DNA of 60,663 bases, counting the filler, from Basidiobolus ranarum (lineage: Eukaryota), in NCBI GenBank assembly GCA_040143965.1. It is 6 parts of 6 records of this genome, joined end to end, with 100 filler letters (N's around TTAATTAATTAA, not from the genome) between each part and the next. Parts side by side here need not be neighbours in the genome. Positions count along the whole stretch, not along the records: positions 10,147 to 20,188 come from JASJQH010000750.1; 5 more parts are not named here. One strand, 5' to 3'. The notes under the pieces were generated by a model. That model did not search any database and was not told where the DNA came from. It saw only the letters and a program-made list of their open reading frames with translations. Within the stretch, counting starts at the first letter, position 1. Each line of letters opens with the position of its first letter. The position numbers were made by a program, and so were the translations under genes. Positions 9,188 to 45,676 of this stretch are shown piece by piece.

Positions 9188-10046
9188 TTAGTTTACCTCG
9201 GTAGGAGTAGAATTAACCTCGGATATCTGTGGCATAGGCGGAGGTGAATCGTTCCCATTGATTTCTTGTAGCATCTGTAGAGCTCGGGAAGAAATTGAAC
9301 TACGTCGTTGAGTCTTGCGGCGATCACGTAAGCGTGATGCTGCATCACCACGGCTACGGATTTTTCTTGTAGCTTCAACACTATTTCCTTTACGTAGGTT
9401 CTCAAGCAAATTATCCATGACACCTTTTTCGTCATCCTTGTCGGTTGAGGTGTTGTCAGAATCGGAATTTTCTTTCTTCTGCACTCTATTCACTTCCTTC
9501 TCCTCCTCGCGCTTCTTTTTCTTATCAATTTGTGCTTGCTTTTCACGGAAGGCAGCATTATCTTTGGAAGCCTTGTTAAACAGAGTAATGAAGCTTTTGA
9601 AAATCCCAAAGAATTCCTCAGGGGCAGTGCTCTTGGGATCTTCACCATATAGTGATACAATCTCATGATAAGCGACATCCATAGCCTTGAATTTCACATC
9701 CATGTTGCTGAAATCTTCTAAAGCAGTGTTTATGAATTCCGTCATTTGTTTGGCAAAAGGATCGTCGCTTTTTTCTGGATCTGAATGGTGCTTCTCCAGT
9801 TCAGTGGCAGCCTCCTTAAGTTTGGATTGAAGATCTTGAAGTTCAATTTTCATCTCCTGGAACGAGACACGACAAGCACTACCTATGTCTTTTAGTTCTT
9901 CTTGGAATTTTGCAATGTCTGGGAATTTAGTTTCAATTATGTTCACCAAAAAGTGTAACAAAGTGGTTTGATTTTCTTTATCTTTCGTGTCAATCAATTT
10001 GTTAATACTATTGATTTTAAATCCATAAGCCCCACCACGGAACCCA
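9188..10046 (-). CDS. formin, C-terminal FH2 + DAD region (5' truncated by contig end)
   Basis: GFRGGAYGFKINSINKLIDTK...TTLLHFL and PEEFFGIFKSF (FH2); GVMDNLLENLRKG followed by a basic stretch (DAD). Confidence 0.9.
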
Positions 10047-10146
10047 NNNNNNNNNNNNNNNNNNNNNNNNNNNNNNNNNNNNNNNNNNNNTTAATTAATT
10101 AANNNNNNNNNNNNNNNNNNNNNNNNNNNNNNNNNNNNNNNNNNNN
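10047..10146. other. artificial contig linker (N44-TTAATTAATTAA-N44)
   Basis: Six-frame-stop palindrome between N runs; identical at five places in the window. Confidence 0.97.
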
Positions 10147-11032
10147 TACAAATACTCCTGATCTCCATACATTAGTTAAGAAACTACAAAAGTAGTTATG
10201 GCTTCTTTGTTTTGTTTGAAATAAAGATTTCACCTTTGGGTGACTGTCTCCCCCCTATTGACTTTGTTTAAATTGATAAATAAATATTACACCTTCTGGT
10301 GATTATCATCCCCCTAACCTGTCAGTGACTGTCTCCCCCTAACCCTTTTCATCCTTACCCTCCCTTACCATTACCAGAACATCTATACCCTTCTCTGATC
10401 CTTCTTCTTGCTGGAGAATACTGCTAGGAGATCCTGAAGTCAGGAAATTTGCTTCCTTTATAGAACAAGCTGAGAAGCCTTCCCTTGCCTACAAGGAATA
10501 TTTGATGGACCTTTGGCAGCAATACCTTCAGAAAGACACCCCCTTTATGCTTTATGTTAATTGTAGCCTCATTCCACTTATTTCTATTGTTGAAAAACAA
10601 TTTTTGCATTTATTGCTCCCTATCACTCAACTTAATAGTGTCTTAGACTCTACTGACTTAACTTTTCTACTGTGCAACATTCACACCAATACATCAAAAC
10701 TTCACACTTTGATTCAGAAACTGCAGAAGTAGTTATGGCTTCTTTGTTTTGTTTGAAATAAAGATTTCACCTGTTGGTGACTGTCTCCCCCCTAACCCTA
10801 ATCCTTCTGGAAAACTCTACTCAGGCTCCACCTCTTCTGGAATACTTTACTCTTGGCTCCATCCTATCAGGAACACTCTTAGGCCTAGCTTACTAGGAAA
10901 CTTAGCTCTGTCAACATCTTGACTTTGTCTTTAAGTATTATATTCTAACTTGGCTTATTTATTTATTGACTTTGTTTAAACTGATGAATAAATATTACAC
11001 CTTCTGGTGCTTATCATCCCCCTGACCCTAAG
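10147..11032 (+). mobile_element. CpG-free head-to-tail array of variably truncated units, each ending in AATAAA-N5-CACC-N4-GGTG-N8-CCCCC-TAACCC(TAA); putative retroelement 3'-end chain
   Basis: Motif copies at 10220-10257, 10279-10319, ~10317-10345 (partial), 10757-10801 and 10987-11032. Two unit families, A and B. No CG dinucleotide found by eye. Confidence 0.6.
10343..10732 (+). pseudogene. 5'-truncated ORF (129 codons) carried by an array unit; product unknown
   Basis: The frame is open from the unit junction to TAG at 10730-10732. Its C-terminus TNTSKLHTLIQKLQK* is paralogous to TNTPDLHTLVKKLQK* at 10148-10195. Confidence 0.55.
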
Positions 11033-11115
11033 AAAAGTTAGTTATATTCTCACTTTTTGCACCTTGTGTATGCTGTTAATGTAAAAATAACAATGAACAT
11101 TTAGAACATAAAAGT

Positions 11116-11400
11116 GTTGAATTATCTTGGTAGCTTGTTGAAAGTGGTTAAGAGAGCTAGAAGAATTTGGGTTTTCCCTTACCTATATATTAAGTGGAAA
11201 GTTAACATTTATAGTTTTGTCCAGAGGTAGGCAAAAAATGTGTGCTTTGTGTTAAGAAAGGCCTCAGGAAAATGTGTACAATGCTGGGTGCTTCTAGGAC
11301 AAGCTTGAAAAATATTTGAAGTAAATGCCTTAAGAAAGTAAGTGAGAGATATCTTAGTTCGATATGGAATAACTAAATACTAAGCTGTATGTGACTATAT
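11116..11400 (+). repeat. ~300-bp dispersed non-coding repeat family, copy A
   Basis: Shares blocks (GTTGAA..., AAGTGGTT..GAGAGCTAGAA, GTTAACATTTATA.TTTTGT, CTTAGTTC.ATATGG.ATAACTAAATACTAAGCT...GACTATAT) with 31058-31360, 31388-31700 (rc) and 35018-35310. Confidence 0.75.
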
Positions 11401-12121
11401 AGATGTATAGGCTATGCTAGTTTCAACAAAACAAGTGAAATAAAAATGCAGCATTGCTAGTGTACTGAGGAAATTGAAGGAAAAGTTTAGGAAGTTTTGG
11501 CAGAGTGAGAAAGTTTGTAACTTCCCGCATTTCAACAACTAGACGCAATAATAATAACAAAATGGATGCTATAGGAGATTTATCACTAATTACAACCAAC
11601 GAAGTAATCAATGCAGCAATCAACACAATTGTGTTATCAGGATCAAGAACAGGAAGGGCTTGGATTTAGATTTACCGCATATTATTCATTGAATGTGGGA
11701 ATAATTGATGGGTGATGAACTCAGGTACAAGTAGTAAAGTCCAGATTATTGGTGAAATGACGGTGTAATGGTGCAATGGATCAACTGGTTGAGTCAACCC
11801 AATTCTGATCCTCAAACCGGAGAGCAGGATTCCACGCCAAATAGGGATGGAAGCTTCTATGATAAACTCTTGGGATGTTCCGGCGATATTGCGACCTTAT
11901 ATGAGTATGACTCCACCCATGACTACCTTCATCATTGCCGAATCACTTTCGTGCATTGTGTTGCTAATCTGTCGTACTAGCATAATATGGGCAATGCGGG
12001 CGATGTGAGCAATATGAGCGTGACCTTGATTTATTTCCACGATCTTTCAAAATGGGATATTTCCCAGATTGGCTACATCCGCATACCGGCGTACCCTAGC
12101 AATACTATAGAGGTATATGTA

Positions 12122-12219
12122 TAGGGTTAGGGTTAGGGCATTGCTGTGATTGCTTACTTTTCTTGGACATCAGCCCTATTATTTTCACGAATGATGGTAA
12201 TTTAAGGTTAGGGTTAGGG
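12122..12219 (+). repeat. two short interstitial (TTAGGG)2-3 tracts
   Basis: TAGGGTTAGGGTTAGGG at 12122-12138 and TTAAGGTTAGGGTTAGGG at 12202-12219. Confidence 0.7.
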
Positions 12220-12518: not shown

Positions 12519-14576
12519 ATGAAGCATTATCTCTTGACTTTGTTCGCTGTCTCGGTGGCCAGTGCTCTTCGCCCATTCACTCCCACTGATTTGGTTTCCT
12601 TAGATAAGCCTGGGGCTGCTGTAGCCTCACCTGATGGTCAATGGGCTGTCTTCTCCAAGTCTAACTACTCCGCAACTGAGAACTCAAGTACCAGAAACTT
12701 GTGGTTGCTTAACTTGAAAAACGATCGCATCACTGCCTTGACAAATCCCAATAAATTTGGAGACAATGAACCTTTATGGTTAGACTCTGCTACTGTTGGC
12801 TTCGTCTCTTCACGAACTGAGACATCTCAACTATGGGCCATCAACATCAAGCCAGGTGCTCAACCAGTCCAAGTTACAAACTTCACTCTCGATATCGGCA
12901 ACGTGAAATATAACTCCAAGGCTAATCTGTTAGCTTTCAGTACCTCCGTCTACCCTGATGGTAATATGGAAAAGTCAGTGGAGATTGACGCTGTAAATGC
13001 CAAACGCATAGACTCTGCCATGGTCTATGAAGAGCTTCTCTTCAGACATTGGGATCACTGGACGTCTACCAAGAAGCAAAATATTTTCACTACCAAACTT
13101 GCTAAGAAAGGAGACACTTACACTGCTGGTAAAGCCGTAAATATTATGCCTGGTGGTAAACTGGAATCCCCTACTGATCCATTTGGTGATTCAACTGATT
13201 ATGACATCTCTCCTGATGGTAAGGAGATTGCTTTCCTCTCCAAGAGACCTGGCAGGGATGAAGCTTGGGAAACTGACATTAACGTGTATGTGGTTCCTAC
13301 TGATGGTAGCAAGGCCCCCAAGTCATTGACTGACAAGAACCTCGGTTCTACCTTTACTCCCACATACTCCAATGATGGCAAAACTTTGGCTTGGTCTCAA
13401 ATGGAGACTCGTGCTTTCGAAGCTGATCGCAAGATCATTATCCTTCATGATCGCAAGACTAAGAAGGATCGTTTCCTTAATAAGAAGTGGGATCGCAGCC
13501 CCAACGGCTTGACTTGGTCAACTGACTCCAAGAGCATCTACCTTCCTACTGAAGATAGGGGTCACGTGAAGTTGTTTGTAGCTGATGTTAAGAGCGGTCA
13601 TATCAAGCCAATTACCCACAAACACCGTGTTGCTGCCGTCTCTGTGGTGAACAAGAATACCCTGCTTTTAACTCAAAGTTCATTCAGCCACCCCTCCGAA
13701 TACTTCACCATTAAGACCGATGGTTCTCAACTCAAACAACGCACCAATATTCACCAAGCAAAGATCCATGACTTTGAGTTACCCAAGTCTGAGGAATTCT
13801 GGTTTGAAGGTGCTGAAGGTGCTCGTGTACATGGGTTCATCCTTAAGCCAGCCAACTTCGACCCTAAGAAGAAATATCCAGTTGCATTCATGATCCACGG
13901 TGGACCACAACAGTCTTGGTTAGACAGTTGGGGCTCAGGATGGAACCCAGCAGTTTATACCAACGCTGGTTATGTCACAGTAGCTATCAACCCTCGTGGT
14001 TCTACAGGTTATGGCCAGAAGTTTACCGATGAGATTAGTAAGCATTGGGGTACACGCCCATACCAAGATCTTATGAATGGTTTAGACTACGTTCTTAAGC
14101 GTTATTCCTACACCGATGGAAATAGAGTTTGCGCTTTGGGTGGCAGTTTCGGTGGTTACATGGTCAACTGGATCAACGGTCAGACTGATCGCTTCAAGTG
14201 TTTAATCAACCACGATGGTATCTTCTCCACTGAGTCCACATACTATACCACTGAAGAACTCTGGTTCCCCGAGTATGAGTTCGGTGGTAAGCCATCTGAT
14301 GACAAGGCAGGCAAGCTTTATCAAAAATTCTCACCATCCAACTACGTTAAAAACTGGAAGACTCCAGTCTTGATCTTCCACGGTAACAAGGATTATCGTT
14401 TAGTCGATGGTGAAGCCTTCGCTACCTTCACAGCCTTGAGAAGACAAAATGTACCAGCTCGCTTGGTTTACTTCCCCGATGAGAACCATTGGATTCTTCG
14501 CACAGGTAACTCTATCCGCTGGTATAATGAAGCGGTACAATGGATGAATAAGTGGACCAATAATACCCAGCATTAG
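12519..14576 (+). CDS. dppV: secreted dipeptidyl-peptidase V-like S9 serine peptidase
   Basis: Signal peptide MKHYLLTLFAVSVASA, beta-propeller repeats (SPDG), IHGGPQ, nucleophile GGSFGG, DYRL and FPDENHW. Intronless, 685 aa. Confidence 0.92.
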   Translation: MKHYLLTLFAVSVASALRPFTPTDLVSLDKPGAAVASPDGQWAVFSKSNYSATENSSTRNLWLLNLKNDRITALTNPNKFGDNEPLWLDSATVGFVSSRTETSQLWAINIKPGAQPVQVTNFTLDIGNVKYNSKANLLAFSTSVYPDGNMEKSVEIDAVNAKRIDSAMVYEELLFRHWDHWTSTKKQNIFTTKLAKKGDTYTAGKAVNIMPGGKLESPTDPFGDSTDYDISPDGKEIAFLSKRPGRDEAWETDINVYVVPTDGSKAPKSLTDKNLGSTFTPTYSNDGKTLAWSQMETRAFEADRKIIILHDRKTKKDRFLNKKWDRSPNGLTWSTDSKSIYLPTEDRGHVKLFVADVKSGHIKPITHKHRVAAVSVVNKNTLLLTQSSFSHPSEYFTIKTDGSQLKQRTNIHQAKIHDFELPKSEEFWFEGAEGARVHGFILKPANFDPKKKYPVAFMIHGGPQQSWLDSWGSGWNPAVYTNAGYVTVAINPRGSTGYGQKFTDEISKHWGTRPYQDLMNGLDYVLKRYSYTDGNRVCALGGSFGGYMVNWINGQTDRFKCLINHDGIFSTESTYYTTEELWFPEYEFGGKPSDDKAGKLYQKFSPSNYVKNWKTPVLIFHGNKDYRLVDGEAFATFTALRRQNVPARLVYFPDENHWILRTGNSIRWYNEAVQWMNKWTNNTQH

Positions 14577-16508
14577 GTGGTTTTCTTCAATTTTGCATTT
14601 AGTTTTGCGTTTAGTTTAATGAATCGATTAAAATTTTGTAAGCGAACTATTAGTTTCCTGGTGATTGTAGTGATTAATGATTTGTTGATTTGAATCAATA
14701 AAAGTTAGCATTTCCCTTACCCAATGATGTTCGGGATTCTAATTCGATATTCCCTCGCTTCGGATCGAGGCGGTCGGACACAAAACGAATTTAGGGATGA
14801 TTATCGGTAATTGTATCGTTTGGTGATCTTACTCATGTGTTCAAAGACGCAGAGCCGCTGTAATAAGGATTCAATAGGTTGATAGCCGTTCAGTGATTTA
14901 AAGAAATTTCGGAATTAATACTTCTATGGTCTAATGGCATGTAATGTGCGATACACCAAGTTTTCTAGTATACAACTAGCTTCATTAAACTCAGTACACC
15001 CATACTTCCATTACTCCTAGTATACCCTCCTAGTACACTCATCCCACCGCCCGTGTAACAATGCCATCTGATTTCCATATCTTTTGATCTTCTCGTTGCA
15101 TGCTTCCCAGGATTTAAACACAGGTTAGGTACTGAGTTGTATCACAAGATCAGGATTAGCGGTATGTTCCCATGACTTGAGGAACCCTAACCTCAGCAGC
15201 ATATGACTTACTAATCATACACTTCATTCCCATATACATGACAATAGTTCCTTAAACTCGATATTCTTTTTACGGCACCTCGTATACATTTATAGTATAT
15301 TATCTGATATACTTTTTGAGTAGTCTTTAGTCATAATGAATATACTATAGTAACTGAACTACCTATAATTACCACGAAACAATACCATATTTAGTGTTTG
15401 CTAGAGTTAAGCATATGCGTATATTGATTTTTAGTATAGCTAATATTTATTTACTGAATATTCGTTACATCAGGATAAACACTCTCATCCATAACTCTTT
15501 GCATTGCAAATTCTGTATGCAGCAGGCTAGTCCAGCAAAATTTTCTCATAACCGACTATTTACATGTACATAATCATCTCGGAAGATATTACAATATTTA
15601 CATGCTGTCAAGTATCATAGCAAGGCACCTTAATGTATAATGAAAGCCAGTTTGGCCGGCTTTCTAGTAACATGATCCAACTTAAAGCTAATTAATGTTG
15701 ATAGGCAACGTAGGTAAATTATTTACGATATTTTAACGCTTTCCCAGAATATATTTGAGATATTAATCACACCAGAACGTCTATCCAGAGATAGGGTACC
15801 AAAATTATCTTATATACTGGAGAGTAAGTGTTAACTAATGAATCAAGCTCTCACATGGCTTGGATATTTGCTACAGGTGCCTGTCAGGGTGAATTCTTTG
15901 ATATTATGAAGATGCTTCCACTAATCTTGGTGCTATAACATGTACTTTTCTTCATTATAGTTTGTGAATCAATTTTGAGCTCAACATCTTTTTTGCACCA
16001 AAACTATAGATGGTTGAATCCATTTCTAAATACTACATACATATATGGAATCCATATTTCTGACCATTTTTATGGCATGTTGCATGTAGATAATGTTTCC
16101 TAGCCGCAACTAACCCCAAGACAGAATATTTTTCCATATCATCAAGCCTTCATGGATATAAAGCAGAAGATGTTAGTCAGTATTACATGCCTTGAAAGTC
16201 ATGTCCAAAATGATTACTGCTAGGAATATCTGGGATCAACTGGAAGTGTTTATCATAATTAGAAGAAATATATGATTAGTACTTATTGCTTTATTGAATT
16301 GAGAATAAGTATGCATGTATGCTGATATTGAAAATGAAAAAAATAACAGCGGGGATGTATTTGAAGGGTGTTCAGAAGGTTGGAGTTAAAGTTTGTGGAG
16401 TTTTGGACGATGTTGAAAGATTTCTATCTTTTGAACTTTTCTGACGCATGTCAAATGTATCCAAGATATATGCGACGAATTTGACTTATGAAGTATTAGC
16501 TAATTAAA

Positions 16509-16572
16509 TATCAGCTACACTAAGCAAGATGTATGAATAGTATCAGCTACACTAAGCAAGATGTATGAATAG
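16509..16572. repeat. perfect 32-nt tandem duplication
   Basis: TATCAGCTACACTAAGCAAGATGTATGAATAG x2. Confidence 0.9.
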
Positions 16573-17022
16573 CTAGATGCTTAATTCTAATATTTCAATA
16601 CCATAAATCATTGAAAAAGTGAGCCACTCACAATGAGATTATTCCTGTATAGTATGTACACTAGGATATACGCAGGGATGCCAGATTTCTGATAGATAGT
16701 GACAAAATTGACACTTGTTTTGAAGACACTTGTTATGAAAACTCTATTACAGTACAACCAACCATACTCCATGAGAAAGTATATATGATAGAGAATGAAT
16801 AGTACATATGATAGAGAATGAATAGTATATATGCTAGAGTATGTGAGTAAACAGACATTCATTGATATCCCTGTCTTAATACCATATCACGAAATCATAA
16901 AAGAAATTAAGAAGTTATTATTTATTTATGAAGACTAGGTATAGCTATGAAAAGGAATATTCGTTTAGCGGGTCATTTAGCTGAATTCACTACAAAATCA
17001 TGCAAGATGCAAACGTTACGCT

Positions 17023-17544
17023 TTAGCAATTGTAACAGTATTGAGCGTATTGGAATACACTGCAACATGTACCACCACAGTTGTTTTGCACAGCCCATTT
17101 CCCGTCCTGACAAACCAAGAAATTACTCCCAGAACATCCATACCTACCATTAACAAGACAATTTGCTCCTGGAGCTACCGTAGGGTCAGGCTTGTTGGAT
17201 GTGGTTGTGGTGGAGGTGGGCTTAGCAGTTGGCTTAGAGGTAGTCTTTGAGGTGGTTGGCTTAGAAGTGGTCTTGGATGTGGTGGACTTGGAGGTGGTCT
17301 TAGAGGTAGTTGGTTGACTGCCACAATTGGGGCAGAATGCGGCGTAAGCTGGAACGCTACAGCAACTTCCAGAACAGATATTTTGTAGGAGCCACTTACT
17401 GGTAGATGTTTGGCAAGCGTAAAAATTTGGACCTTCACAGTAATAAGAGGCACCGCTGTTTGAATTGCAAGGAGCTGATGGAACAGCAGATACAACACCC
17501 AAGGTAGCTACGATGGTGCCAACGAGAAGGTTAGAGAAATACAT
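17023..17544 (-). CDS. secreted Cys-rich protein: two CBM19-like modules separated by a Thr/Ser/Lys/Pro linker
   Basis: Signal peptide; two modules of pattern C-x4-6-Y-x-C-x-G-x2-F-x2-C-x3-5-KW-x2-QN-x-C-x-G-x-CC; paralog at 33218-33793. The CBM19 label rests on pattern resemblance. Confidence 0.75.
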   Translation of the reverse strand: MYFSNLLVGTIVATLGVVSAVPSAPCNSNSGASYYCEGPNFYACQTSTSKWLLQNICSGSCCSVPAYAAFCPNCGSQPTTSKTTSKSTTSKTTSKPTTSKTTSKPTAKPTSTTTTSNKPDPTVAPGANCLVNGRYGCSGSNFLVCQDGKWAVQNNCGGTCCSVFQYAQYCYNC

Positions 17545-18150
17545 TTCAGTTGAATAGAGAGTGGAAGGTTTGTCGGTATAGACTTATGATGCTGAATTGT
17601 CTGTTGTTTATCTGGTTTATATGGACAACGGATGTCCTGCTTGTTTATGGTTTTTTGCACTTCTAGTGAATCAAGGCTTCTATCAATTTCTGAATTTAGT
17701 ACAACTTGGGCAGCGCCTTTGTGATACAAGGTTGATGTTTATTTTTAGTATCAAAAACGTGAGATCTATCAGTAAAAATAGGAGACACATCTTCAGCCTA
17801 GAGAATTTAGCTTAGTCAAATGAAACTTCTCCGTATAAAGTATACTGAAGAAGGGGGAGTCAAACTTGGCAACTCGTGGGAAAGATTTGCAATGATCATA
17901 TATCTCTTCATAAGCGTTCATACATAGGTTGATGTGAAATAAATTGAAGTACCGACAAAAGTATTGCTGGTTGTGTAATGTCAGTGGCGTCGATTGAGTA
18001 ATGTTATTTTAGTTACTGGGATTGGAGTCGGGTCTGTTCTAGTCCAAGATCAGCGCAGCTGTCTAACACAATCATGTTACTAATAACTGACGATATCACG
18101 ATTCACAGTTTGCGATTCGTTATATCCAGTTTCAGACAGTATGTTCCTAC

Positions 18151-18230
18151 TCTACAAAGCGAAGGTACTACTTACATAACTCTATAAAGCGAAGGCACTA
18201 CTTACATAACTCTACAAAGCGAATGTACCA
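18151..18230. repeat. 30-nt tandem repeat, ~2.6 copies
   Basis: TCTA(C/T)AAAGCGAAGG(T/C)ACTACTTACATAAC, no spacers between copies. Confidence 0.85.
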
Positions 18231-18399
18231 ATCCTAGCTCTAGCCTTATTACTCATCAAAAATTTTGAAGTTTATTTAAATTCAACAACTGGCTGAAAGA
18301 TTTACATTCCTAGTTGTCAATAGTCATTAAAGTTACAATATTCATGCCGATTAATATGTCACAAAATTTCCGAGGTTCAAACAAATGAGTAGATATGAT

Positions 18400-20188: not shown

Positions 20189-20288
20189 NNNNNNNNNNNN
20201 NNNNNNNNNNNNNNNNNNNNNNNNNNNNNNNNTTAATTAATTAANNNNNNNNNNNNNNNNNNNNNNNNNNNNNNNNNNNNNNNNNNNN
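20189..20288. other. artificial contig linker
   Basis: N44-TTAATTAATTAA-N44. Confidence 0.97.
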
Positions 20289-30321: not shown

Positions 30322-30421
30322 NNNNNNNNNNNNNNNNNNNNNNNNNNNNNNNNNNNNNNNNNNNNTTAATTAATTAANNNNNNNNNNNNNNNNNNNNNNN
30401 NNNNNNNNNNNNNNNNNNNNN
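30322..30421. other. artificial contig linker
   Basis: N44-TTAATTAATTAA-N44. Confidence 0.97.
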
Positions 30422-31057
30422 TTTTTTGCTTTGGGTGCGTGGGACGAAGGGGATTGCGAGTACCATAGTTGCTTTGAGCCCACTGAAGTCTTCTAGCCAC
30501 ATGATTGCCTGACTAAAATCTGAATTTTAGTCTGTGGGTATTCACGATGGTTTTTGTGATGGCGAGATATTGGAGTAAATTATTTGATGACGAAGTTGGC
30601 GCTTCAGCAGTTGAGCATGTTTTGATATAGGTGAGAATTCTACTGGTACTAATATCTTAGAGATAAGGCTGCTTTTGTAGAAACATTGATATTAAGCATC
30701 CAAGTATTATTGTATATTGTTTAGCATATGCATTATTCATTCACTGAATCTTTCTTAAGTTAAATTCATAACTTGTATTTTGGATATATTTCTCAATTGT
30801 TGAGCATACTCAACTCTCTTAACTCCTTAGAGACACAGTCATGTTGCAATTTCTCTTCATTTCTAATATCACTATATATATGCATATTTCCCTAATTATT
30901 CCAAAAGTGCAAATCACATACTTCTTACCATTGCATACTTTTTTTACCTTACTTTTCTACCCCTAACTTGCTCTCATTTTCAGAGTTAATATTTATCTTT
31001 TGGTATAAAAACCACATGTTATTTCTACCTATGAGTGTCTCAATCCATCAAAAAAGG

Positions 31058-31700
31058 GTTGAAGTATTTTGAGAGTTTGTTCAAAGTGGTTTGGAGAGCT
31101 AGAATGAATAGATGGTGTTCACTTGTTGATTTATTGAGTGGAGGGTTAACATTTATAATTTTGTTAGGGGGTAAGCAAAGAAGCAAGTAAATATGTTAGA
31201 AAGGTCCTAAGAGTATATATGCAAAGTTTGGGGTCTCCAGGAGAAGTTTTCGAAATCTATATATCTTCAGACTTCTAAGTAAGTTCTAATTGTGAAAAGT
31301 ATGTGCTAACTTAGTTCAATATGGGATAACTAAATACTAAGCTATATACGACTATATATGCTGAAATTAGCATTGCCTAAACACGTTTATAGTCATATAT
31401 AGCTTAGCATTTAGTTATCTTATATTGAACTAAGATATTACCCATTATTTGATATTGGAATTCACTTGGAATATTTTACCAACTTAGAAGTTCTCAGATA
31501 TATAAATTTTCAAACTTGTGCTAGAAGCCCCAACTTTGCACATATGTTCCGGGACCTTCCTAAACACATTCTACACGTTAGTTTGCTCACATCTTGACAA
31601 AAGTATAAATATCAACTGAATACTCAATAAATCAATAAGTGAAAACCACCAATTCCTCTAATTCTCCAAACCACTTCCAATAGGCTCCCAAATACTTTAA
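31058..31700. repeat. two diverged copies of the ~300-bp repeat family in tail-to-tail inverted arrangement (B +, ~31058-31360; C -, ~31388-31700)
   Basis: CTTAGTTCAATATGGGATAACTAAATACTAAGCTATATACGACTATA faces TATAGTCATATATAGCTTAGCATTTAGTTATCTTATATTGAACTAAG. Outer ends GAAGTATTTT and CAAATACTTTAA. Confidence 0.8.
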
Positions 31701-33793: not shown

Positions 33794-35017
33794 AGTTCCA
33801 CCGAATGGCGTCAATTATCTGGTATACTTCAGGTTAACCTTGTCACATGGTTACTCAATTGCTAATGCTTTAACTTACCTCATTTGGAATCCTATGATTG
33901 GTCTCGAACTGAATAAAATTTAGTTTTTAACTATTCTTACTTTAAACTATTGTATCCTATCTATCACCAAATAGGTCGAAATTGTTCAGCACTGAGATCG
34001 GCGTTGTTAGAATTCCTAAATTCATCTTGGTCTAACCATAATATCGTATTGTGAAGCCAAAAGTGAATAAAAAACTAACAAATATTTGGGTGAATTATGA
34101 TACTAGCTTTATGACAATGACTAGAACTGAGAGGATAAGAGTAACTTCTCTTCCTTGAAATTTGAAAACAAGTGAGATTGTCCTCCGAGAATCCCAAAAT
34201 AGTGAGACTGACATAGATTGGGGGACTCTACAGGTATGTGACACGGGGAAGGTAGATCTTCCAGCATTTTGGATCGAAGCATTCCTTGGGTTGCATGTGT
34301 TAAAAAGTATGCTGAGTTGAAGGCAAGCTAAATTCTCAATTTAAATTTTACACTAGGAAGACACCGAGTGCAGTACGATGGGAAATATCAAGGTATATTT
34401 TTTACCAACGTAAAAATTTAGTGCTGGTAGGTAGATGGTTATTAGCACTTCTTGAAATGGCCTGCTAGGCGATCTAGTACAGTAAAGATATCCCGCTAAG
34501 AATCTGGCTAATTCGTAACGTTGGTGGCATAATATTGTGATAATTTTCAGAGTCAGTACACAGTAGGAAGCAGTTTTTATGAATTTAGTGAAATAGTGGG
34601 GCGTGGAACATTATGAACACATAGCACCAAAGGTGTTTAGTCTTTTTCCATAGTCAACATTTGATACCTTCAGTTGTTACACTCCATATCTCCAATCATA
34701 ACTTTACTTTTCTTACTCATTAGTTAGCCTTAAGCTGTTTATTTAGTTCAATGTTTACATTGTCGATTTCTAGTAAATTCTTTTCAATACCACCATTTTT
34801 AAGCAATCGGCATATTTTTTGGGAGAGTTGAGTTAATATTTCTGACTACACTCTAAGTTACTCTAGTGAAGTTTGATTATCCTTATGTTAGTAGGTTAGT
34901 AAAGGCTAAAACAATAAATTAAGGCTAAGCCCCTTATTTAGCAACTATTTTAAGCTTAAAAAGTCATTGACGTTCTGTTTGTAAGGGGTAACTATGCAGC
35001 TTATTTTCATTTTTACT

Positions 35018-35310
35018 GTTGAAGTATTTTGGGAGTTGTTGGAAGTGATTTGGAGAACTAGAAAGAATTGGTGGTTTTCACTTACTGATCTATTTAGTAT
35101 AAGTCGATATTTATACTTTTGTCAAGAAGCAGATAAACCAACGTGTAGAATATGCTCAGGAAGGTCCCAGGAACATGTGTACAACATGTGGAGTCTTTTG
35201 GACAAGTTCGAGAAAATCACATAAACAGAGAACTGAGTAAATTCAGAGTGAACATATTGACTAACAACATCGTGAAATCTAGAGGGCTAGCTATGTGACT
35301 AAATATATGC
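35018..35310 (+). repeat. ~300-bp dispersed repeat family, copy D
   Basis: Most similar to the reverse complement of 31388-31700 (GAATTGGTGGTTTTCACTTA, GATATTTATACTTTTGTCAAGA, AACGTGTAGAAT, GGAAGGTCCC). Confidence 0.75.
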
Positions 35311-36169: not shown

Positions 36170-37949
36170 CTAAAGGAAATGAACGGCAGATTTCTTCAAG
36201 CACCATACATCTTGAGTAGATGGCTTGTCATAGCTGTTATTTCCAATCCATGCACCAATGTCAATTCCATCTTGCGGAGCCTCAATTTTCTATTAGCAAA
36301 GCAAATCATAAGTAATAGTCTATCATACACGTGAAATAATGCCTTTACCCAAATGGATCCGTATTTATTGGCCTTTGTGCCCTTGTCATACCAAAGACGG
36401 CTGCCCACACTACCACGAACTAGGAAATCCTGGTGAACTGCAAACAAGCGACCAGCATGCTCTTCTTGTGGTGCAATTTGGCTTCTAGAAGGGTGCGCTT
36501 TGTAGAAATGGCCAAGAGGCTTAAAGCTCACAGCACTCTCGGCTACAGGTCTCCAAATGTTGTATTCATTGCTCTTACCAGAGCCTGCATCATCCCAAAT
36601 TTTATCCCAGTTGGTAATAGCACCTAAAACACCTATTCAAAATTTAAGCCGCGTATTCCATGGAAAGCTTGACCATATATGTGTTATTCGATACCTTTAG
36701 CCCAGGGTTTCTCACGAACAATCAAAACCTTGTACTCAGCATTGCTTTCGGGATAACCGGGGCCAACTCCGTATTGAGCAACCCAATTCCATCCTTCATT
36801 ACCAAGTTCTGGCTTGTACACAGCAAAAGCCTCACTAGCACCTGATCCATCATCATTGAATTGCTTTCTTCCAACAACCCATTGAGCCTCAAGCACCGGA
36901 CCGTCAGGCATTTTAAAGGGTAGCTGGTTTTGCTCGAAATAGGTAAGCAAAGCATCCTTTAGTGCTTGACGGCGATCATCGCCGACAGCCAAATACCATA
37001 TAGGTATCAGTCTGGAAGAGAACTGTTGGTTAATAGTACAACATGGGATGAGTATTGTTCGTACTTACCCATCACGGGTGGCAAAGTCAATTAGTACAGG
37101 ATGAGATTTCACGGTTTTGGCCCATTCCTCAAGGTTTGGGTTGCTATCCAATCCAAATGCAGAAGGATCTCCACCAGAAATGGTGGTTTGGAAACGACTG
37201 TTGGGAAAAAAAATTCAGCCAATAGGATTTGTGTATGAATTAAGAAAGAGCACTTACGAGTTTTGCTTAAATGATTGATATTCACTAGTCTTGGTGACTT
37301 CAGTAGAAGCGGAGCTACCAAACGCACCAAATTGGAAAGTAGCTTCCGCATATATGCCGAACGAGTCTGTATTGCGGCTTTTGAGTTTGTTAGTAATTGC
37401 GGTGTAGACGCATCTTCCACCGACTTTGATGGCAGCAACGTAATGGGTACCATATTTTTCGTAGAGTTTGATAGGATCCAGATTGTCAATATCGTTGCGA
37501 ACATTGTCTTTGAGAAAATCACGGGGATTTCCAGCAGTATCATCCAAACGTAAAATCCATAAGGAAGCATTGTATTGATAACGAGTGTAAGCCTCGAATT
37601 TGCTGTAGGAGTTGCTGGTCTTGAACTCACTCTTGACTGACCCGCCAAAACCTCCGTAGCCTACTTGTAGGTTTACTGACGCACTGAAGTTCTGCACGTA
37701 ATCCTCTACTGTTTCACCACTTGCGACGCTAGAGTCGCGAAGATTTTTATCCAAGTACTGAACAAGTTTGGCTGGAGCAGTATAATTGGAATTGGTCGCA
37801 GAGGCATAGAGAGTTTTCTTCTCTAACTTCTCAAAGTCAAATAGCTGCTCCTCACAAGAATCCACGTTGGCGTATTGTCCAGTAGCTGCTTGATAACCAC
37901 AACCAAGTACATCAAGTCCTGGGATCGGTGCGATATTGTTGCCCATCAT
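36170..37949 (-). CDS. MACPF-domain putative pore-forming protein with C-terminal three-repeat Vps62/DUF946-like (beta-tripod-like) domain; exons 37258-37949, 37069-37197, 36695-37011, 36349-36623, 36170-36289
   Basis: PGLDVLGCGY, MACPF signature YGTHYVAAIKVGGR, ISGGDP, LIPIWYL. Repeats QFNDDGSGA..AVYKP, IWDDAGSGK..IWRP and LWYDKGTKA..SIWK. Four GT-AG introns join the exons in frame. Confidence 0.88.
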
Positions 37950-39448
37950 CTTGCTAGAAAGGATAGCGAAGTTGCTTTTCTTGCTAATGTGGAGATAAAG
38001 GTGGTGGCTGAGATTTTATATTCAAAGTCAGAAAATATTCAAGCCCATTTCTTGGTGTGCCTGTTGTAATTATGCCTCTATTCCTTATGGTATACGAATC
38101 CCCTCATAAACGCTTGTCACTCAATGTCTGAGTCGAACTTGACATATATCCCGATAACAGCCAATTAGATCACTATATGGCTCTATCACACTACTTGTCT
38201 GACGCTGGATTATCTTTAACTATAATGGACAATGCCATACTTCGCGTTGTGAGTTCCTATTGTGGATTGCTGATCGCAATATTAGCATAGGCCTTTCGCT
38301 ATTTTACGTAGAGCTACTATTGATACTAAGTCATGAACATATGCGATCTCCCTGTGTAAATTGTGGCACCCAGGTGAGATTATTACTACATTCCTTACTG
38401 TAGATGAGAAATGATGGTGATATTTCGAGTCCGAGGGATAGGCTGGCGAAATTATTTGAAGATATCGGATTTACTTGTGGCCTTTGTATCAACTATATCA
38501 GTAGGATAGAAACAACTAAGCCACTATAGAGCTCTTTTTCGTAGTGACAATACTCAAGTCATTGGCAGTTGTGAATGTCCAAATATTGACTTTGTCCGAC
38601 ATCTGTATACCTAATTTAGTAGGAAGAGAGCTATTTCATATCCACACAAAGGGATTCTCTCGAAGTAACTTCCGCATCAATGGAGAGTAACAAGTGAATG
38701 ACTTTTGGCTACTGCACGCATATCAATCAAGGGTGTACATACTGTCATCTTTGTTAGGTCTTTGAGTAACAGAATTCTACTCTAGTCACAACTAACTACA
38801 TGCTAGCAATCAGTTTCCAGTCTCCAAGCAAGTCAGTACCTATAATCATTTCGCAGAGATACTAGGAAAGTAATTTTAGAAAGCACTTTCAAAATTATCA
38901 ATGCACTTTACCAGCTTCTTTTCACTTTCACAAAAAACCGGGGATTATCGCATGAAAGAACGTTATCCAGCCTATAAAGATGTGGATCTGCAAGATACCT
39001 GTGACCAGTCATGTCTTGTGCACATTGTTTGTTATTAAAAACCGGTCAATAATAAATATTGCTAGTTTATAACAAATATATTGCAATAAAGAACGGCTTT
39101 ATGGTAGCATATCTGCCAGACATTGGCAGTATCTTACTGGAAAGATTGTAAAAACATATTCCTCATCAGTGACTTTATGTACAACTCTGATCAATAATAA
39201 ATGTAATCCAATTACTAGCCACACAATGCACCGTTAAATATGCTTTGGTAGGAAGTTAAATGGTAGAAGCCAGTATTTCGATCTTTCAGAGTTTTTTTAA
39301 CAAACAACCATTTTATTATATTTCGGAGAGCATGCCTGTTTGAGTTTTATTTAACCAAGCCACATAATTCTTAGGAAGAGTGTAGCATAGAGCTGAGTGT
39401 TTCCGGTATGAGTGCCTCAGCGCTGTAATTGGGAGACTTGAGACTGAT

Positions 39449-40441
39449 CTTAGGGTTAGGGGGACAAAAAGCACCAGGTGGTGTGGACTTTATTTAGCTT
39501 ATATACTAATCTGAACAAAGTGACAATCAAGACATCAATCTTCTAAGATATTGTGACAAAACTAGATCATATCCATAGTTAACTTGATGACTGTTGTGTC
39601 CAAGAGAAAAGTGGACAAAAAGTCTTGAACTTTACTGAACCAAAGAAATAGTTAAGTGCAGAATCTTAGAACTGTTTAAGCAGGATATATTGGTGGAGCA
39701 GATCTAACTAATATTTGTCTTGGGAATAGCAGTGGGTTGCTATGTTATGGTAGAGAGTAGGCTTGCTAGGCAGCTAGGCTTGGTGTTCTGTAGGTGCTAG
39801 TAGATACTAGGCTTGGATAGAAATGAGAGGGGAATATTAAATTTGTTGAGAAACACTGAGAAGTGCTGAGATCCTATATTTGTTGAGACATACACTAAAC
39901 CAAAAGGTTCAGTTAGCTTTATTTATACTTTTTGATAGCAAAGTGAATTAGTCAGTGCCAAGATATTAGAAGACTAATTCTGAGAAAAGATAATGTGATT
40001 GGATAGATAGATAGATAGATAAGTGAGTCATGCATCAGCTGAAGTCTTGGGAGTGAAAGATCATTGGTTATGAATCTTGTGACTCATATTGACTTGTGTC
40101 TAGGAAGATAACTCAGAGGTTAATGCTGATTGGATAATGATCATATGATTGGTCATATGATCTGATAGAAATGAAAAGAGAATAGATAGTTAGTCATGAG
40201 ATAAGTCTCATGATAGGGTCACTGGATAAGGTCAGGTGACTAGTCAGCAATGATCATAAACTAAACAGAGATTCATGCAAGTTGTATAGATATGGCATAA
40301 GTTAAGCAACTCTGTATGTTGGTGCACAACAATAACCAATGTAATAAAGTTCAGAGGATGTAAACATAGTGTTAAGGGGCACAGGTGGTTAGCAGAAAGG
40401 AAGATGCTTAGTACAAACCAAGTGGACAATAGGACAAACCC
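39449..40441 (-). mobile_element. CpG-free repeat or mobile element remnant ending (minus strand) in the same AATAAA-N5-CACC-N4-GGTG-N8-CCCCC-TAACCCTAAG motif
   Basis: The minus strand of 39449-39494 reads AATAAA GTCCA CACC ACCT GGTG CTTTTTGT CCCCC TAACCCTAAG. No CG seen from 39424 to the contig end. Contains (GATA)5 near 40002-40021. Confidence 0.6.
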
Positions 40442-40541
40442 NNNNNNNNNNNNNNNNNNNNNNNNNNNNNNNNNNNNNNNNNNNNTTAATTAATTAANNN
40501 NNNNNNNNNNNNNNNNNNNNNNNNNNNNNNNNNNNNNNNNN
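40442..40541. other. artificial contig linker
   Basis: N44-TTAATTAATTAA-N44. Confidence 0.97.
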
Positions 40542-40543
40542 AG

Positions 40544-41524
40544 GGAGGAAGAGGAGGTCATGTTGGAAAAGGAGGCCACAGAGGAGGTCACGGGAAGGGA
40601 GGAGGAGGAGGGCATGGTGGAAAAGGAGGCCACAGAGGTGGTGGTGGGATGACAGGAGCTTATGGAAATGGTGGAGGAGGTGGCGGTGGGATAACGGGAG
40701 CTTACGGAAATGGTGGAGGAAGTGGAGGAGGTGGCGGTGGGATAACGGGAGCTTACGGAAATGGTGGAGGAAGTGGAGGAGGTGGCGGTAACGGTGAGGT
40801 TAATATCGATTATACAAATAATCAAAGTCAGAGTACCTACAACAACGATGAGAACAAAGCAACAAATATCTATGTAACTAATAACGATAATGGAGCAACG
40901 AACACACCCGCTACTGTTAATAATTACAACACCAGTAACACTACGAATAACTATAATTCGAACAGTGACGGTCTTGGAAGTTATCATCCTACCATAGAGG
41001 TGATCATTAAAAAATGTTTCGAACAAAATCGTCCAGCGATTGAAAGCATTATCAATCTAAAAAATTCAGGAAAGATTGAGTCCAAGGATGCTCTCTACAA
41101 ATTAACTGAAATATTTCAGAGTGTGGACACACTAATCGAAGAATCCACTAAGGGCCTTCCTGCTGAAATCTCTAATGGAATTCCCAAGTTTACAAGTAAA
41201 CTTACGGAGAGTACTGATGATTGGTCAACATATATTTCCAAATGTCTTAAGAGGTTTGATGGTTCTTCGAATAATAATGTCACTCCTATTGGCCCCGACA
41301 CCTCAGCCCCAGGTGATGCTAGCCCCAAGGATTCAGCCGCAGGTGATGCTAGCCCCAAGGATTCAGCCGCAGGTGACGCTAGCCCCAAGGATTCAGCCCC
41401 AGGTGACGCTAGCCCCAAGGATTCAGCCGCAGATCACCCTAGCCCCAACGATTCAGCCCCAGGTGACGCTAGTCCCAACGATTCAGCCCCAGGAAGCGCT
41501 GGTCCCAGCAGCTCAAGCTACTGA
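40544..41524 (+). CDS. Gly/His-rich repetitive protein with central helical domain and C-terminal DSA(A/P)GDASPK decapeptide repeats (5' truncated)
   Basis: Frame open from the contig edge (GGRGGHVGKGGHRGG...); (M/I)TGAYGNGGG x3; Asn-rich stretch; about seven 30-nt repeats at ~41297-41500. Confidence 0.75.
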   Translation, partial: GGRGGHVGKGGHRGGHGKGGGGGHGGKGGHRGGGGMTGAYGNGGGGGGGITGAYGNGGGSGGGGGGITGAYGNGGGSGGGGGNGEVNIDYTNNQSQSTYNNDENKATNIYVTNNDNGATNTPATVNNYNTSNTTNNYNSNSDGLGSYHPTIEVIIKKCFEQNRPAIESIINLKNSGKIESKDALYKLTEIFQSVDTLIEESTKGLPAEISNGIPKFTSKLTESTDDWSTYISKCLKRFDGSSNNNVTPIGPDTSAPGDASPKDSAAGDASPKDSAAGDASPKDSAPGDASPKDSAADHPSPNDSAPGDASPNDSAPGSAGPSSSSY

Positions 41525-41928: not shown

Positions 41929-43072
41929 ATGTGCCTTCTTAAAATCCTGTATCTTCTAGCTATCGTTACGTCTTTTACTAATGCATCCTTCTGGGATTCA
42001 ATTACTCGCCTCACAACAAATAATGAGAATCAAGGCCAATTCGATGTTTCTGAGTTCAACTTAGTGGAAGACAAGCTGATAGAAGATCTTAAATTACACG
42101 CTAAATATGCAGCGGCAGCTTACTGTCCAATAGATAAAGTGATGCAATGGAGTTGTGGAAATAGATGTGAAAGCGGTCTGAATGTCACCTCCTACTTTAT
42201 ATCACCTGAAAGCCACGTTGCTGGGTATGTTGGATATAATCCTGACAGACGTAAAATGGTGATCTCGTTCAGAGGGTAGGTCTTCTTCTTGCTTCAAATC
42301 TTACACCATATTTACATTATTATGAACCCAGAACTAGTAATATCAAAAACTGGATACATGATGTTCAATTCTTGCCCATTGACTTTCAATATCCACATCA
42401 AGGAGCCTCTTACTCACTCCCTATCAAAGTTCATGGTGGGTTCTTCCGAGCGTATGAATCGATTAGAGACCAAATGAGAGAAGCAATAAAGCTTCTAGGC
42501 TCGATTCTGGCCGCTGAATTTCAAGAGTATGAGTTAATCATAACCGGTCATTCTCTGGTACAGTACAGGTTTGAGGTCTAGTTGAATTTACTCCTGTTAA
42601 TTTGAATTCGTTGAAATAGGGGGCCGCGGTGGCAGTGTTTTCAGCTATGGATATCGCTCAAAATTACATGACCGAGGAGAAGCAGATCTCATTTAAAGAA
42701 GGGTATGCTATCGATCCAAGTAAAATGTACATACACACTTATGGTGGACCTAGAGTTGGAAACTCGGGCTTCGCTAGTTTAGTTTATAATACATTATCTT
42801 CATCTAAAGATGGATCAAACTTAGTACGAGTAACCTCGAAAAGTGACCCCGTGCCACACTTCCCTCCCACTATCCTGGGCTTTAGACATTATCCACAAGA
42901 GAATTGGATTCAGGAAGAAGGCTCGACTATATTATGTCAGAATAGTATTGAAAGAGGAGGGTCCATGGAAGATCAACCATGCGTGCACGGAAAAAAGATA
43001 GGATTTGATTCTGAAGACCACCTAAAATATTGGGATGTGAGGTTTGGAAGCTCTTGCAAAGACACTACATGA
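41929..43072 (+). CDS. secreted class 3 (Rhizomucor-type) triacylglycerol lipase, two introns
   Basis: Signal peptide; YAAAAYC, VISFRG|T, VHGGFF, ITGHSL|G (nucleophile elbow), TYGGPRVGN, DPVPHFPP, DHLKYW. Confidence 0.92.
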
Positions 43073-43839
43073 TTTATCACCCGTATTATTATTCCCATGA
43101 TTTCTTTTCTACTGAGTGAAGCTTCTGTTTGTTAAAATCCGTGTAGACGTATTTGAGAGTCACAAAACTACCCCCCTCTTTTCGGCCTTACTAGTCAGCT
43201 ACCTGTCACGATTCTTATTCCATCTAGCCTTGATATCGCTTAAAAATCAGATTGATCGCTCTAACATATACACATATATAGATCGCTTTGCGGAAATAAA
43301 CCAACACAATACACAAAGATAGCTAAATGAAGTGAATTTTCACAAATTTTATGGAAAAAAGGCATCCAAGAAGAGTCTCAGGTTTCTTATATCAGTGGAT
43401 ATATGCAGCATATAGTAGCATATACTAGCATACATCGCATACGTCAAGACCTTACATAGAGCAGAAATCAAACTTGCTGGTTTCATTGATGGCTAATTAA
43501 TACTACAATGACCCAACGAGAATAGCTAAAAACTCTAGCCTAATCTACCCCCTACACCTTCACTAGCGCGGACTTCAATCGAGAACAATATTTGTGATAG
43601 AAATGAATATAAAAATGATAAATACTGAGATTATTGAGTAAATCATTGTCATGATTATGACTTGGTAGATTATGCCATGGGTGAAACTAATTGATTTTTG
43701 ATTCAGATAGCTTTGTTGAAGTTGCTTATAAGCCTAGCTTGGTGGAAGTTGCTTATAAACCTAGCCTTGTTTCTTCTCTGAAAAATTCATTCCGATTTGC
43801 TTTCACTTGAGCTAAATTCCGTTTGTTATATCCTCTCAG

Positions 43840-44274
43840 ATGCGCTATAATGTAATATTCCCTGTGTTGTTAGTATGGTCCTCCTTGGCCTATGCAGCGA
43901 TCCCAGATCTGTCCAAATTTAAAGATAACGAACCAGATGTAGTTCACGAGTTATCAAGGTTACGTAATGAAAAGGTTCTTCCAGTCATGAAAGAGATAAC
44001 CAAAGAGTTACTCCGACCGACATTTGATGTCACAGAGGTGTTAAAAAAGCTGAAACAAATGAAGGACGAATACCAAAACGAAGGCGCGTTTCTGGTGCAG
44101 AGATACTCTCACCTGGCACGAAACAAAAAGGCCGAACCACACCAAGCCAATAAAGTAGTCACCTCCAAAATACAGGAAGTCACTCGTCAATTGAAGAAGG
44201 CGGATGTTCCCAACCCAAAAGTACCCTTCTTGTCATTTACACAAAGAAATAATGAAACTCAGCAGGAGCTTTGA
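43840..44274 (+). CDS. small secreted helical hypothetical protein
   Basis: ATG ORF of 144 aa with a hydrophobic signal peptide ending AYA; TATAA elements upstream. Confidence 0.6.
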   Translation: MRYNVIFPVLLVWSSLAYAAIPDLSKFKDNEPDVVHELSRLRNEKVLPVMKEITKELLRPTFDVTEVLKKLKQMKDEYQNEGAFLVQRYSHLARNKKAEPHQANKVVTSKIQEVTRQLKKADVPNPKVPFLSFTQRNNETQQEL

Positions 44275-44754: not shown

Positions 44755-45450
44755 ATGAAGTACTGTCTTGCCACTAACATAGCTTTAACCCTGTTTTGTC
44801 TGAAGGCAACATTCGGTCACATGGAGATGGTCTATCCGTATCCCAGAGACTCAATATTTAGTCCGTACTATCGCCAGCACAGCCCTGATTGGGATGTTGC
44901 ATCCCCTATTGAGGGAGACAGAGTAAGGACTGATAAGGCCATTCTCGTTTACAAACAACCGCTAATTTATTCATCATTCGAGTAGAGTTACCCATGCCAA
45001 GGCAAATCACGAGGGCCAATCCAGGCTACATTTCGACCGGGCTCATCCATTCCAGTAAGAATCGTTGGGCCCAATAATCATGAAGGGGGCCATTGTCAAT
45101 TTGCGGTAAGCTATGACGGGGTCAACTTTGTAGTAATCAGAGAGGTTCTACACACATGTCTTACGGAATCGGGTACTAATTTTAACATACGTTTACCACG
45201 TAATATTGGCAACGGTGTGGTTGTTTTTGCTTGGTCCTGGATCAACGCCCAGGGTCGTCGTGAATACTATATGAATTGTGCTGATATTGGTATCACCGGT
45301 GGAAAAGCAGGCGGTCGTGTAACTGGACCTCGTCTATTAGTAGCCAATATACCCGGTCACCCCGTCGTGGAAGAGTTTTACTATGACTGGAACGATGATG
45401 GCCAGAGTTTGTTTGATGAACGTGAGATAATATCTATTAAGAGATGGTAG
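44755..45450 (+). CDS. secreted AA11-like lytic polysaccharide monooxygenase-like protein (intron ~44923-44985)
   Basis: Signal peptide followed by His1 (ATFG|HMEMVYPYPR); YPCQG, HEGGHCQFAVSYDG, FAWSWINAQGRREYYMNCADI. Confidence 0.82.
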
Positions 45451-45607: not shown

Positions 45608-45676
45608 ATCAATTTAATACCGGATGAAATCAACTTAATACCAGATGAAATCAACTTAATACCAGATGAAATCAAC
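45608..45676. repeat. 21-nt tandem triplication of the last codons and stop of the CHAP gene
   Basis: ATCAA(T/C)TTAATAC(C)(G/A)GATGAA x3 plus a partial copy. Confidence 0.9.

Follow-up and report, generated by a model that had tools for sequence, protein, structure and literature searches.

Head-to-tail units with a two-hairpin 3′ module and a telomere-type tail in Basidiobolus ranarum are probably 5′-truncated LINE copies

In the fungus Basidiobolus ranarum (assembly GCA_040143965.1), five repeat units lie head to tail at one end of a contig, and we consider it probable that they are 5′-truncated copies of long interspersed nuclear elements (LINEs) from a lineage so far found almost only in Basidiobolus. 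The chain occupies positions 10147-11031 on the plus strand of the 60,663-nucleotide (nt) stretch analysed here, which we call the window, and its units, drawn from two families, follow one another in the order A-B-A-A-B; a unit of a third family, C, lies on the minus strand of another contig. The units share their 3′ ends whilst ranging in length from 26 nt to at least 992 nt, which points to variable 5′ truncation. From sequence, we assign the window elements to 5′-truncated LINEs of the apurinic/apyrimidinic endonuclease (APE) type, the endonuclease type being taken from relatives. A first-pass annotation of this DNA had described retroelement copies with common 3′ ends and truncated 5′ ends, five units in this order and of varied length, closing on a fixed-spacing motif followed by a reverse-complement telomere-type repeat, and these features are borne out, with unit lengths of at least 111, 62, 26, 456 and 230 nt. 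Exact plus-strand matches to the motif AATAAA-N5-CACC-N4-GGTG-N8-C5 begin at the four expected places (10220, 10279, 10757 and 10987), the partial copy is present in the chain, and the terminal repeat reads C5-6-TAACCCTAA in three copies and is shorter in three. Two details needed correcting: the last unit, B2, is real but ends at 11031 rather than one base further on at 11032, and the four listed motif sites are joined by a further, unlisted copy at 39494-39458 on the minus strand.

The window consists of six pieces of 10046, 10042, 10033, 10020, 10015 and 10007 nt. The joints between them are linkers connecting six contigs, so pieces that stand side by side here are not adjacent in the genome (Table 1). 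We read the pieces as whole contigs of a fragmented assembly, set out in falling order of size, and on this reading one contig begins at position 10147 and another finishes at 40441. Both element loci are then at contig ends, with the 5′ end of the element facing outward in two of two cases; neither contig end has a terminal (CCCTAA)n array, and both contigs end within the repeats. Every junction in the chain falls exactly at a tail, and the truncation point of the following unit differs each time. The telomere-type stretch after the C-run measures 2, 5, 6, 9, 9 and 9 nt in A1, B1, the partial A unit, A2, B2 and C, respectively. At the A1/B1 junction the dinucleotide TA (10256-10257) is common to the end of A1 and to B1, and at the next junction ACC (10317-10319) is common to the end of B1 and to the partial A unit. 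Across 110 nt A1 and A2 are 85% identical, and B1 and B2 agree at 60 of 64 positions. G is scarce on the element strands, where GC skews of -0.29 and -0.35 place both loci in the top 1% of the 1100 windows scored.

Table 1. Positions of the element units, their shared module and associated features in the stretch analysed (ORF, open reading frame; UTR, untranslated region).
Feature	Position	Strand	Length (nt)	Description
Unit A1	10147-10257	+	at least 111	5′ part missing, cut by contig start; last 15 codons and TAG of LINE ORF (10148-10195), then 3′ module; tail C6-TA
Unit B1	10258-10319	+	62	Family B 3′ module alone; tail C5-TAACC
Partial A unit	10320-10345	+	26	Begins within second hairpin; GGTG changed to AGTG; tail C5-TAACCC
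Unit A2	10346-10801	+	456	ORF to TAG; 69-nt 3′ UTR, which is the module; tail C6-TAACCCTAA
Unit B2	10802-11031	+	230	155 nt upstream of module; tail C5-TGACCCTAA; abuts non-repeated DNA (GAAAAGTTAG...)
Unit C (third family)	39450-40441	-	at least 992	Cut by contig end; tail C5-TAACCCTAA; abuts GATCAG...
Shared 3′ module, reference copy	10727-10801	+	~75	
Telomere-type doublet	12121-12138 (CCCTAACCCTAA at 12127-12138)			TTAGGGTTAGGG on + strand (CCCTAACCCTAA on -); without module
Telomere-type doublet	12202-12219 (CCCTAACCCTAA at 12208-12219)			TTAGGGTTAGGG on + strand (CCCTAACCCTAA on -); without module
Linkers	10047-10146, 20189-20288, 30322-30421, 40442-40541, 50557-50656			N44-TTAATTAATTAA-N44

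Outside their last ~75 nt, no nucleotide similarity could be detected between families A, B and C; the shared 3′ module at that end is what ties them together. Each of the five copies is predicted to fold into the same pair of hairpins. Stem-loop 1 would be formed by CUUUGUUU.../...AAAUAAAG, with AATAAA as its 3′ half, paired with UUUGUU; it is followed by a 5-nt spacer, stem-loop 2 (CACC-N4-GGUG), an 8-nt linker, a run of five or six C and UAACCCUAA, and the N8-C5-6-UAACCCUAA end is predicted to be single-stranded. As the first-pass annotation had observed, the spacers are constant in length and vary in sequence, and this holds for five of five copies. The two-hairpin structure is a prediction, and AATAAA could also, or instead, act as a poly(A) signal; a poly(A) tail is present in none of the copies. 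Within the 68 positions compared in the module, A1 and A2 differ at two, which both belong to the loop of hairpin 2, as against 14 of 42 positions directly upstream (Fisher p 1.8e-5), where the changes are mostly synonymous. Conservation of the module thus exceeds that of synonymous sites, and the module behaves as if constrained, in line with the earlier proposal that it holds a cis-acting signal.

A covariance model of the module (R1) scored A1, B1, A2, B2 and C at 73.9, 67.8, 90.7, 90.1 and 78.1 bits and found no further copies in the window. When up to three mismatches were allowed in the motif, the search returned the same five sites, and none of 100 dinucleotide shuffles gave any match. 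A prokaryote genome collection of 596 billion bases yielded a single match, which we take as chance, and the full motif had no match in the JGI metagenome contigs. A looser motif found six loci there, representing three distinct sequences; these lack AATAAA and a second telomere repeat and were therefore also taken as chance matches. Searches of the RNA families in Rfam identified no family at gathering score in the window; at E <=10 there were nine matches (eight small nucleolar RNA families, E 0.5 to 9.3), all far under gathering score. Neither locus (10147-11300 and 39300-40441) gave a hammerhead ribozyme match at E <=10, and the whole window gave none at gathering score. The CUGANGA core is present in one of six tails, that of B2, and B1 does not retain it. 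The window contains no transfer RNA (tRNA) genes, so an origin from a tRNA-derived short interspersed nuclear element is not indicated.

Outside the elements, the best hit to the module model (14665-14725, 21.4 bits, E 0.014) lies in the 3′ UTR of an S9 peptidase gene, where TTTGTT-N10-AATAAA is followed by TTCCCTTACCC without a second hairpin. This match may be due to chance or to a poly(A) context in common; TTTGTT...AATAAA occurs outside the tails twice, against about one instance expected, a small number on which to judge the idea of a general poly(A) context. Telomere-type motifs are concentrated near the elements. With up to one mismatch, CCCTAACCCTAA has seven matches in the window against 0.15 expected, and all seven fall in the first 2.1 kb of the second contig or the last 1 kb of the fourth. 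Two doublets in the second contig, 81 nt apart, precede the peptidase start codon at 12519 by 300-400 nt and have the orientation opposite to the tails; the module model gives them 13.8 and 11.9 bits, which come entirely from its telomere part. In the 22 nt before the second doublet, on the minus strand, 11 positions match the A2 tail ungapped, CACCTGT included. These doublets may represent tails that have decayed, remnants of telomeres or sites belonging to a promoter.

The coding evidence connects the chain to LINEs. The A2 ORF (10346-10729) is open from the truncation point and closes with a TAG at 10730-10732, which sits in the first bases of the conserved module. Its 128 codons (P0121) are the last of an ORF that contains a reverse transcriptase (RT), and the statement of the first-pass annotation that no RT was visible in the window is not wholly accurate. 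By itself, the 128-residue product has no Pfam match; its sole long homologue, P0122 (664 residues), is identical to it at 87 of 108 residues (81%), ends in the same terminal peptide and carries RVT_1 (Pfam, E 1.6e-24). Amongst solved structures, the best match of P0122 is human L1 ORF2p (E 2.6e-11), followed in order by a group II intron RT and R2, and no telomerase is included in its seven matches. A1 retains the same last 15 codons as A2, and residues 650-659 of P0122 are 100% identical to A1 at 10148-10177 by tblastn. Over the 16 codons that A1 and A2 have in common, stop included, there are 14 base differences, ten at third, four at first and none at second positions, giving eight synonymous and four non-synonymous codons, a pattern that indicates purifying selection on a protein.

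Among the 120 homologues listed, 49 have APE-type endonuclease Pfam domains (hand count) and none has a GIY-YIG or telomerase domain. The close family is small: an exhaustive search gave four representatives besides the query at E < 1e-100, and the named close relatives of P0122 come from B. meristosporus. Two gene models of that species, P0126 and P0127, on contigs of 116 and 176 kb, are annotated as hypothetical proteins. Both contain parts of the LINE ORF, either fragmentary or duplicated, and both were probably predicted from element copies that have decayed. Within our window, tblastn with seven LINE proteins found matches in the A units and C only. Pfam detected no RT or endonuclease in 17 of the 23 ORFs of at least 150 residues, the ORFs outside that scan being 9188-10090, 40490-41056, 40490-41524, 42620-43072, 43816-44274 and 44986-45450.

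Relatives that reach further towards the N-terminus than P0122 give an indication of the endonuclease. These are P0123, P0124 and P0125 (62-64% identical) and P0128 (50%), all of which have Pfam matches to Exo_endo_phos or Exo_endo_phos_2 N-terminal to the RT. By eye, GDLN and SDH can be picked out in their alignment in the order expected, and P0123 and P0125 appear to have I-D where Q-E is usual. Residues 1-246 of P0123 match clusters of the endonuclease/exonuclease/phosphatase (EEP) fold in the ESM Atlas by language-model features (0.95), and its predicted structure aligns with such clusters over residues 1-212 to 1-233 with template-modelling (TM) scores of 0.65-0.73 by query. After the RT, Pfam finds no domain in P0122, P0123, P0125 or P0128, and in P0124 only a below-cut-off chance match to Carn_acyltransf. 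On these matches in relatives we place the lineage among the APE-type LINEs.

Unit C, a diverged LINE, retains a C-terminal ORF remnant at ~40439-40332 that matches residues 836-868 of P0128 (51.5% identity, E 5e-4, tblastn). Its frame stops at 40244 and is followed by a 3′ UTR of ~790 nt ending in the module (39535-39450), compared with the 69-nt module that makes up the whole 3′ UTR in family A. The 155 nt upstream of the module in B2 contain no recognisable coding sequence and have no protein match in tblastn with the seven LINE proteins; family B may have a long UTR or be non-coding.

We propose that the module would serve as an RNA signal for the element's own RT, of the 'stringent' type of LINE 3′ UTR recognition; the RT of the silkworm element SART1 recognises its 3′ UTR. 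The single-stranded C5-6-UAACCCUAA end could pair with a G-rich, TTAGGG-type DNA 3′ end, which would then prime reverse transcription (target-primed reverse transcription), and an early stop of synthesis would leave a 5′-truncated copy. The inserted tail may recreate the preferred target; later copies would then insert in or on earlier tails, or the RT would switch to the tail of another RNA. Such re-insertion or template switching might also account for inner tails cut to 2, 5 or 6 nt, for the microhomology of 2-3 nt at two junctions and for the A-B-A-A-B succession itself. The units of 26 and 62 nt would seem better explained by synthesis that aborted and moved to another template than by separate stable insertions. 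As to the origin of the 3′ end, we lean somewhat towards one made by the element's own endonuclease rather than a natural chromosome end, since the endonuclease domain in relatives favours a primer end of this kind. The outward 5′ ends at two of two contig ends, the lack of a target sequence at the two unique-DNA junctions and the local excess of telomere motifs keep the addition of copies to chromosome ends alive.

Several observations weigh against this account of 5′-truncated, APE-type LINEs that use a folded module and a telomere-type target. The hairpins are without covariation support: 11 of 14 pairs are invariant, 305 of 500 shuffles reach the observed pairing, and the fold z-scores are modest (-1.0 to -2.6). 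By sequence the EEP matches are weak: P0123 reaches 23.0 bits where the cut-off is 24.5, and P0128 reaches 27.5 where it is 27.4. Three of the four relatives fall under the curated Exo_endo_phos cut-off, and P0128 alone is just above it. Residues 1-246 of P0123 have no relevant sequence match amongst solved structures, where an unrelated imelysin peptidase appears at E 0.2. The endonuclease is seen in relatives only, the window copies and P0122 being truncated and without the N-terminal part. These relatives were compared as proteins only, and we presume that they carry the same tail; we likewise assume that TTAGGG is the telomere repeat of this fungus. Both junctions with unique DNA have a 9-nt tail alone and no telomere tract. 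With regard to target-site duplications, no 5′ junction with host DNA falls inside the window.

An alternative that we regard as possible, if doubtful, is that the same LINEs extend natural or broken chromosome ends without an endonuclease, the RNA end annealing to a G-strand overhang or to the previous complementary DNA end, as proposed for Athena and Coprina; the chain would then have grown at a subtelomere, through end additions or through template switches in series. The complementarity of the tail to TTAGGG repeats is consistent with this, as are the outward 5′ ends at both contig-end loci, an orientation that end addition requires, the two unique-DNA junctions without telomere tract or target sequence, the 2-3 nt of microhomology at inner junctions, the units of only 26 and 62 nt, and the enrichment of telomere-type doublets next to these loci only. 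However, the shared outward orientation would be expected in 1 in 4 cases under random orientation, neither contig end has a terminal (CCCTAA)n array, and the relatives encode an APE/EEP endonuclease domain. Furthermore, the contigs that carry the homologous B. meristosporus gene models are 116 and 176 kb long, and an internal position is therefore possible for some copies. There are also no telomerase-added caps between units, unlike in Athena and Terminon arrays as they are presented in the available part of the published account (PMC6431247). A more ambitious version, which seems to us unlikely, would treat the LINE, with an RNA ending in a telomere-complementary sequence of its own, as an independent case of the Athena/Coprina strategy in an early-diverging fungus. 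The fixed two-hairpin fold and 8-nt linker would present the RNA end, and chromosome ends or any G-rich 3′ ends could be extended without an endonuclease. By way of the common 75-nt module the families, of which one may be non-coding, would be rivals for a single RT, and serial template switching would lengthen the chains. The layout of two hairpins, linker and tail recalls the boundary helix plus template of telomerase RNA.

The chain might also have been assembled from older copies at the DNA level, through unequal recombination, break-induced replication or end joining, instead of by serial retrotransposition at this site. Such processes dominate changes in MoTeR and Cnl1 arrays, according to the accessible portions of those studies (PMC7367193, 10.1101/2021.08.11.455996), and the chain copies have diverged from one another, A1 and A2 being 85% identical over 110 nt. 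We nevertheless find this improbable, given that all junctions are exactly at tails and the truncation points of the next units are all different; where two junctions share sequence, it is just 2-3 nt, too short for homologous recombination. That the short units are an artefact of a tangled repeat graph in a fragmented assembly is very improbable: A1, B1 and the partial A unit do all lie less than 200 nt from the contig start, but an overlap of 2-3 nt should be too small for an assembler to join without spanning reads, and both the A2-B2-flank structure and the separate C locus are independent of these units. The class that the first-pass annotation had in mind, endonuclease-less Penelope-like elements of the Athena or Coprina type or else a new telomere-primed class, we find scarcely credible. 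Reverse-complement telomere repeats directly after a 3′ fold, together with 5′-truncated head-to-tail copies, are what is described for such elements in the portions of the accounts available (PMC6431247, PMC8557442), but the A2 ORF is the C-terminus of a LINE-type rather than a telomerase-like RT, the relatives have an APE/EEP domain, and the hammerhead fold was not found at either locus, the CUGANGA core being restricted to B2. Nor is the system undescribed in kind, as was supposed, since telomere-associated arrays of 5′-truncated copies are known in fungi from MoTeR, FoTeR, Cnl1 and Coprina, as far as the available parts of those accounts go.

A Helitron-type array or a cassette array built by a recombinase, the latter also raised by the first-pass annotation, can be given almost no weight. 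Helitrons begin with TC, have a 3′ hairpin ~10-12 nt before a terminal CTRR and insert between A and T. The full tails here do end in CTAA with a short hairpin upstream; however, that hairpin is 22 nt from the terminus, T follows only one of the three full tails, tail lengths vary, and the unit encodes the C-terminus of a LINE RT. The RT homology contradicts the Helitron or cassette reading, and nothing in the analysis points to a recombinase cassette.

Other features of the window lie around and beyond the elements. The S9 peptidase (685 residues, 12519-14573) is 87% identical to a protein of B. meristosporus CBS 931.73 and 62-67% identical to full-length B. ranarum homologues. A dispersed repeat family of ~330 nt, with a mean column identity of 66%, has four copies, at 11107-11430, 31049-31358 (+), 31359-31700 (-) and 35017-35184; one begins 75 nt past the chain, two form an inverted pair in the fourth contig, and no tRNA gene or coding signal was found within the repeat. 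The ORF at 45656-46360 (-) has a CHAP domain (E 2e-16), which is known chiefly in bacteria and phages, and the ORF at 37254-38015 (-) has a weak MACPF domain. Two ORFs of ~900 residues each, 47883-50555 (+) and 50658-53405 (-), run to the contig edge and match no Pfam family at E <=0.001, the former having weak hints of VWA (E 0.02-0.06). Tandem repeats occur at 16509-16572 (32 nt, two copies), 16778-16846 (23 nt, three copies) and 18149-18238 (30 nt, three copies), and at 17195-17322 a G-rich array of 12/27-nt units lies within an ORF, the region at 17147 being among the strongest GC skews of the window.

As it stands, then, the element is a LINE of an ordinary kind whose tail is unusual, and with it Basidiobolus, a zygomycete-grade fungus, joins the short list of hosts with retrotransposons tied to telomere-type repeats. 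We found no published account of such elements in Basidiobolus in a search of the literature that lay apart from repeat databases and paper supplements. The 3′ signal, with its two hairpins, fixed 5-nt and 8-nt spacers, C-run and UAACCCUAA, could be used to catalogue the family and to mark subtelomeres in fragmented assemblies, and it offers a handle for testing template selection and positioning by a LINE RT. If it is true that the tail primes on chromosome ends, this would represent a convergence between LINEs and Penelope-like elements.

A partnership between elements through a common 3′ end has a precedent in the eel elements UnaL2 and UnaSINE1, which are otherwise unrelated and have in common a conserved 3′ stem-loop and a short terminal repeat that are recognised by one RT. 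The Basidiobolus units differ in that their terminal repeat is telomere-type, and a partnership of A, B and C is suggested by the common module only. Close in general form is Cnl1, a LINE of Cryptococcus whose many fragments make up head-to-tail arrays adjoining telomere repeats and break short-read assemblies, as set out in the available part of its description (10.1101/2021.08.11.455996). The likeness, by description rather than by sequence comparison, is that of a fungal LINE with head-to-tail arrays of fragments; telomere repeats adjoin the Cnl1 arrays, whereas a position next to telomeres would be our reading here, and a tail module of this kind does not feature in that part of the Cnl1 description. 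The silkworm elements TRAS and SART combine an APE endonuclease with an RT and are linked to telomere-type repeats in a fixed orientation, again in the portions of the accounts available (PMC5537684, PMC7367193). They differ in lying inside long telomere arrays and ending in poly(A), whereas the Basidiobolus elements have a fixed telomere-type run of at most 9 nt after the C-run, no poly(A), and no flanking arrays at two of two proximal junctions.

MoTeR1 and MoTeR2 of Pyricularia and FoTeR of Fusarium also form head-to-tail arrays, with their 5′ ends towards the chromosome end. The available sections of the relevant papers describe truncated relics whose 3′ end still has a telomere repeat, at least in part, inter-element tracts from half a repeat upwards, and a coding and a non-coding element with 77 nt of 3′ end in common (PMC7367193, PMC8381367, PMC12857005). 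These elements, however, belong to the CRE/SLACS type, in which a restriction-enzyme-like endonuclease follows the RT, whilst in the Basidiobolus lineage the APE/EEP matches of relatives are N-terminal and no Pfam domain follows the RT. Athena, Coprina and Terminons share the short reverse-complement telomere repeat placed right after a 3′ RNA fold and the 5′-truncated head-to-tail copies, so far as the accounts available to us extend (PMC6431247, PMC8557442), but they have another class of RT, no endonuclease and a hammerhead fold, as opposed to the EEP domain found in relatives of the Basidiobolus elements. Since both the RT class and the endonuclease type differ, and no hammerhead was found at the two loci, the Basidiobolus elements are members of neither the Penelope-like nor the MoTeR family, and we class them as LINEs.

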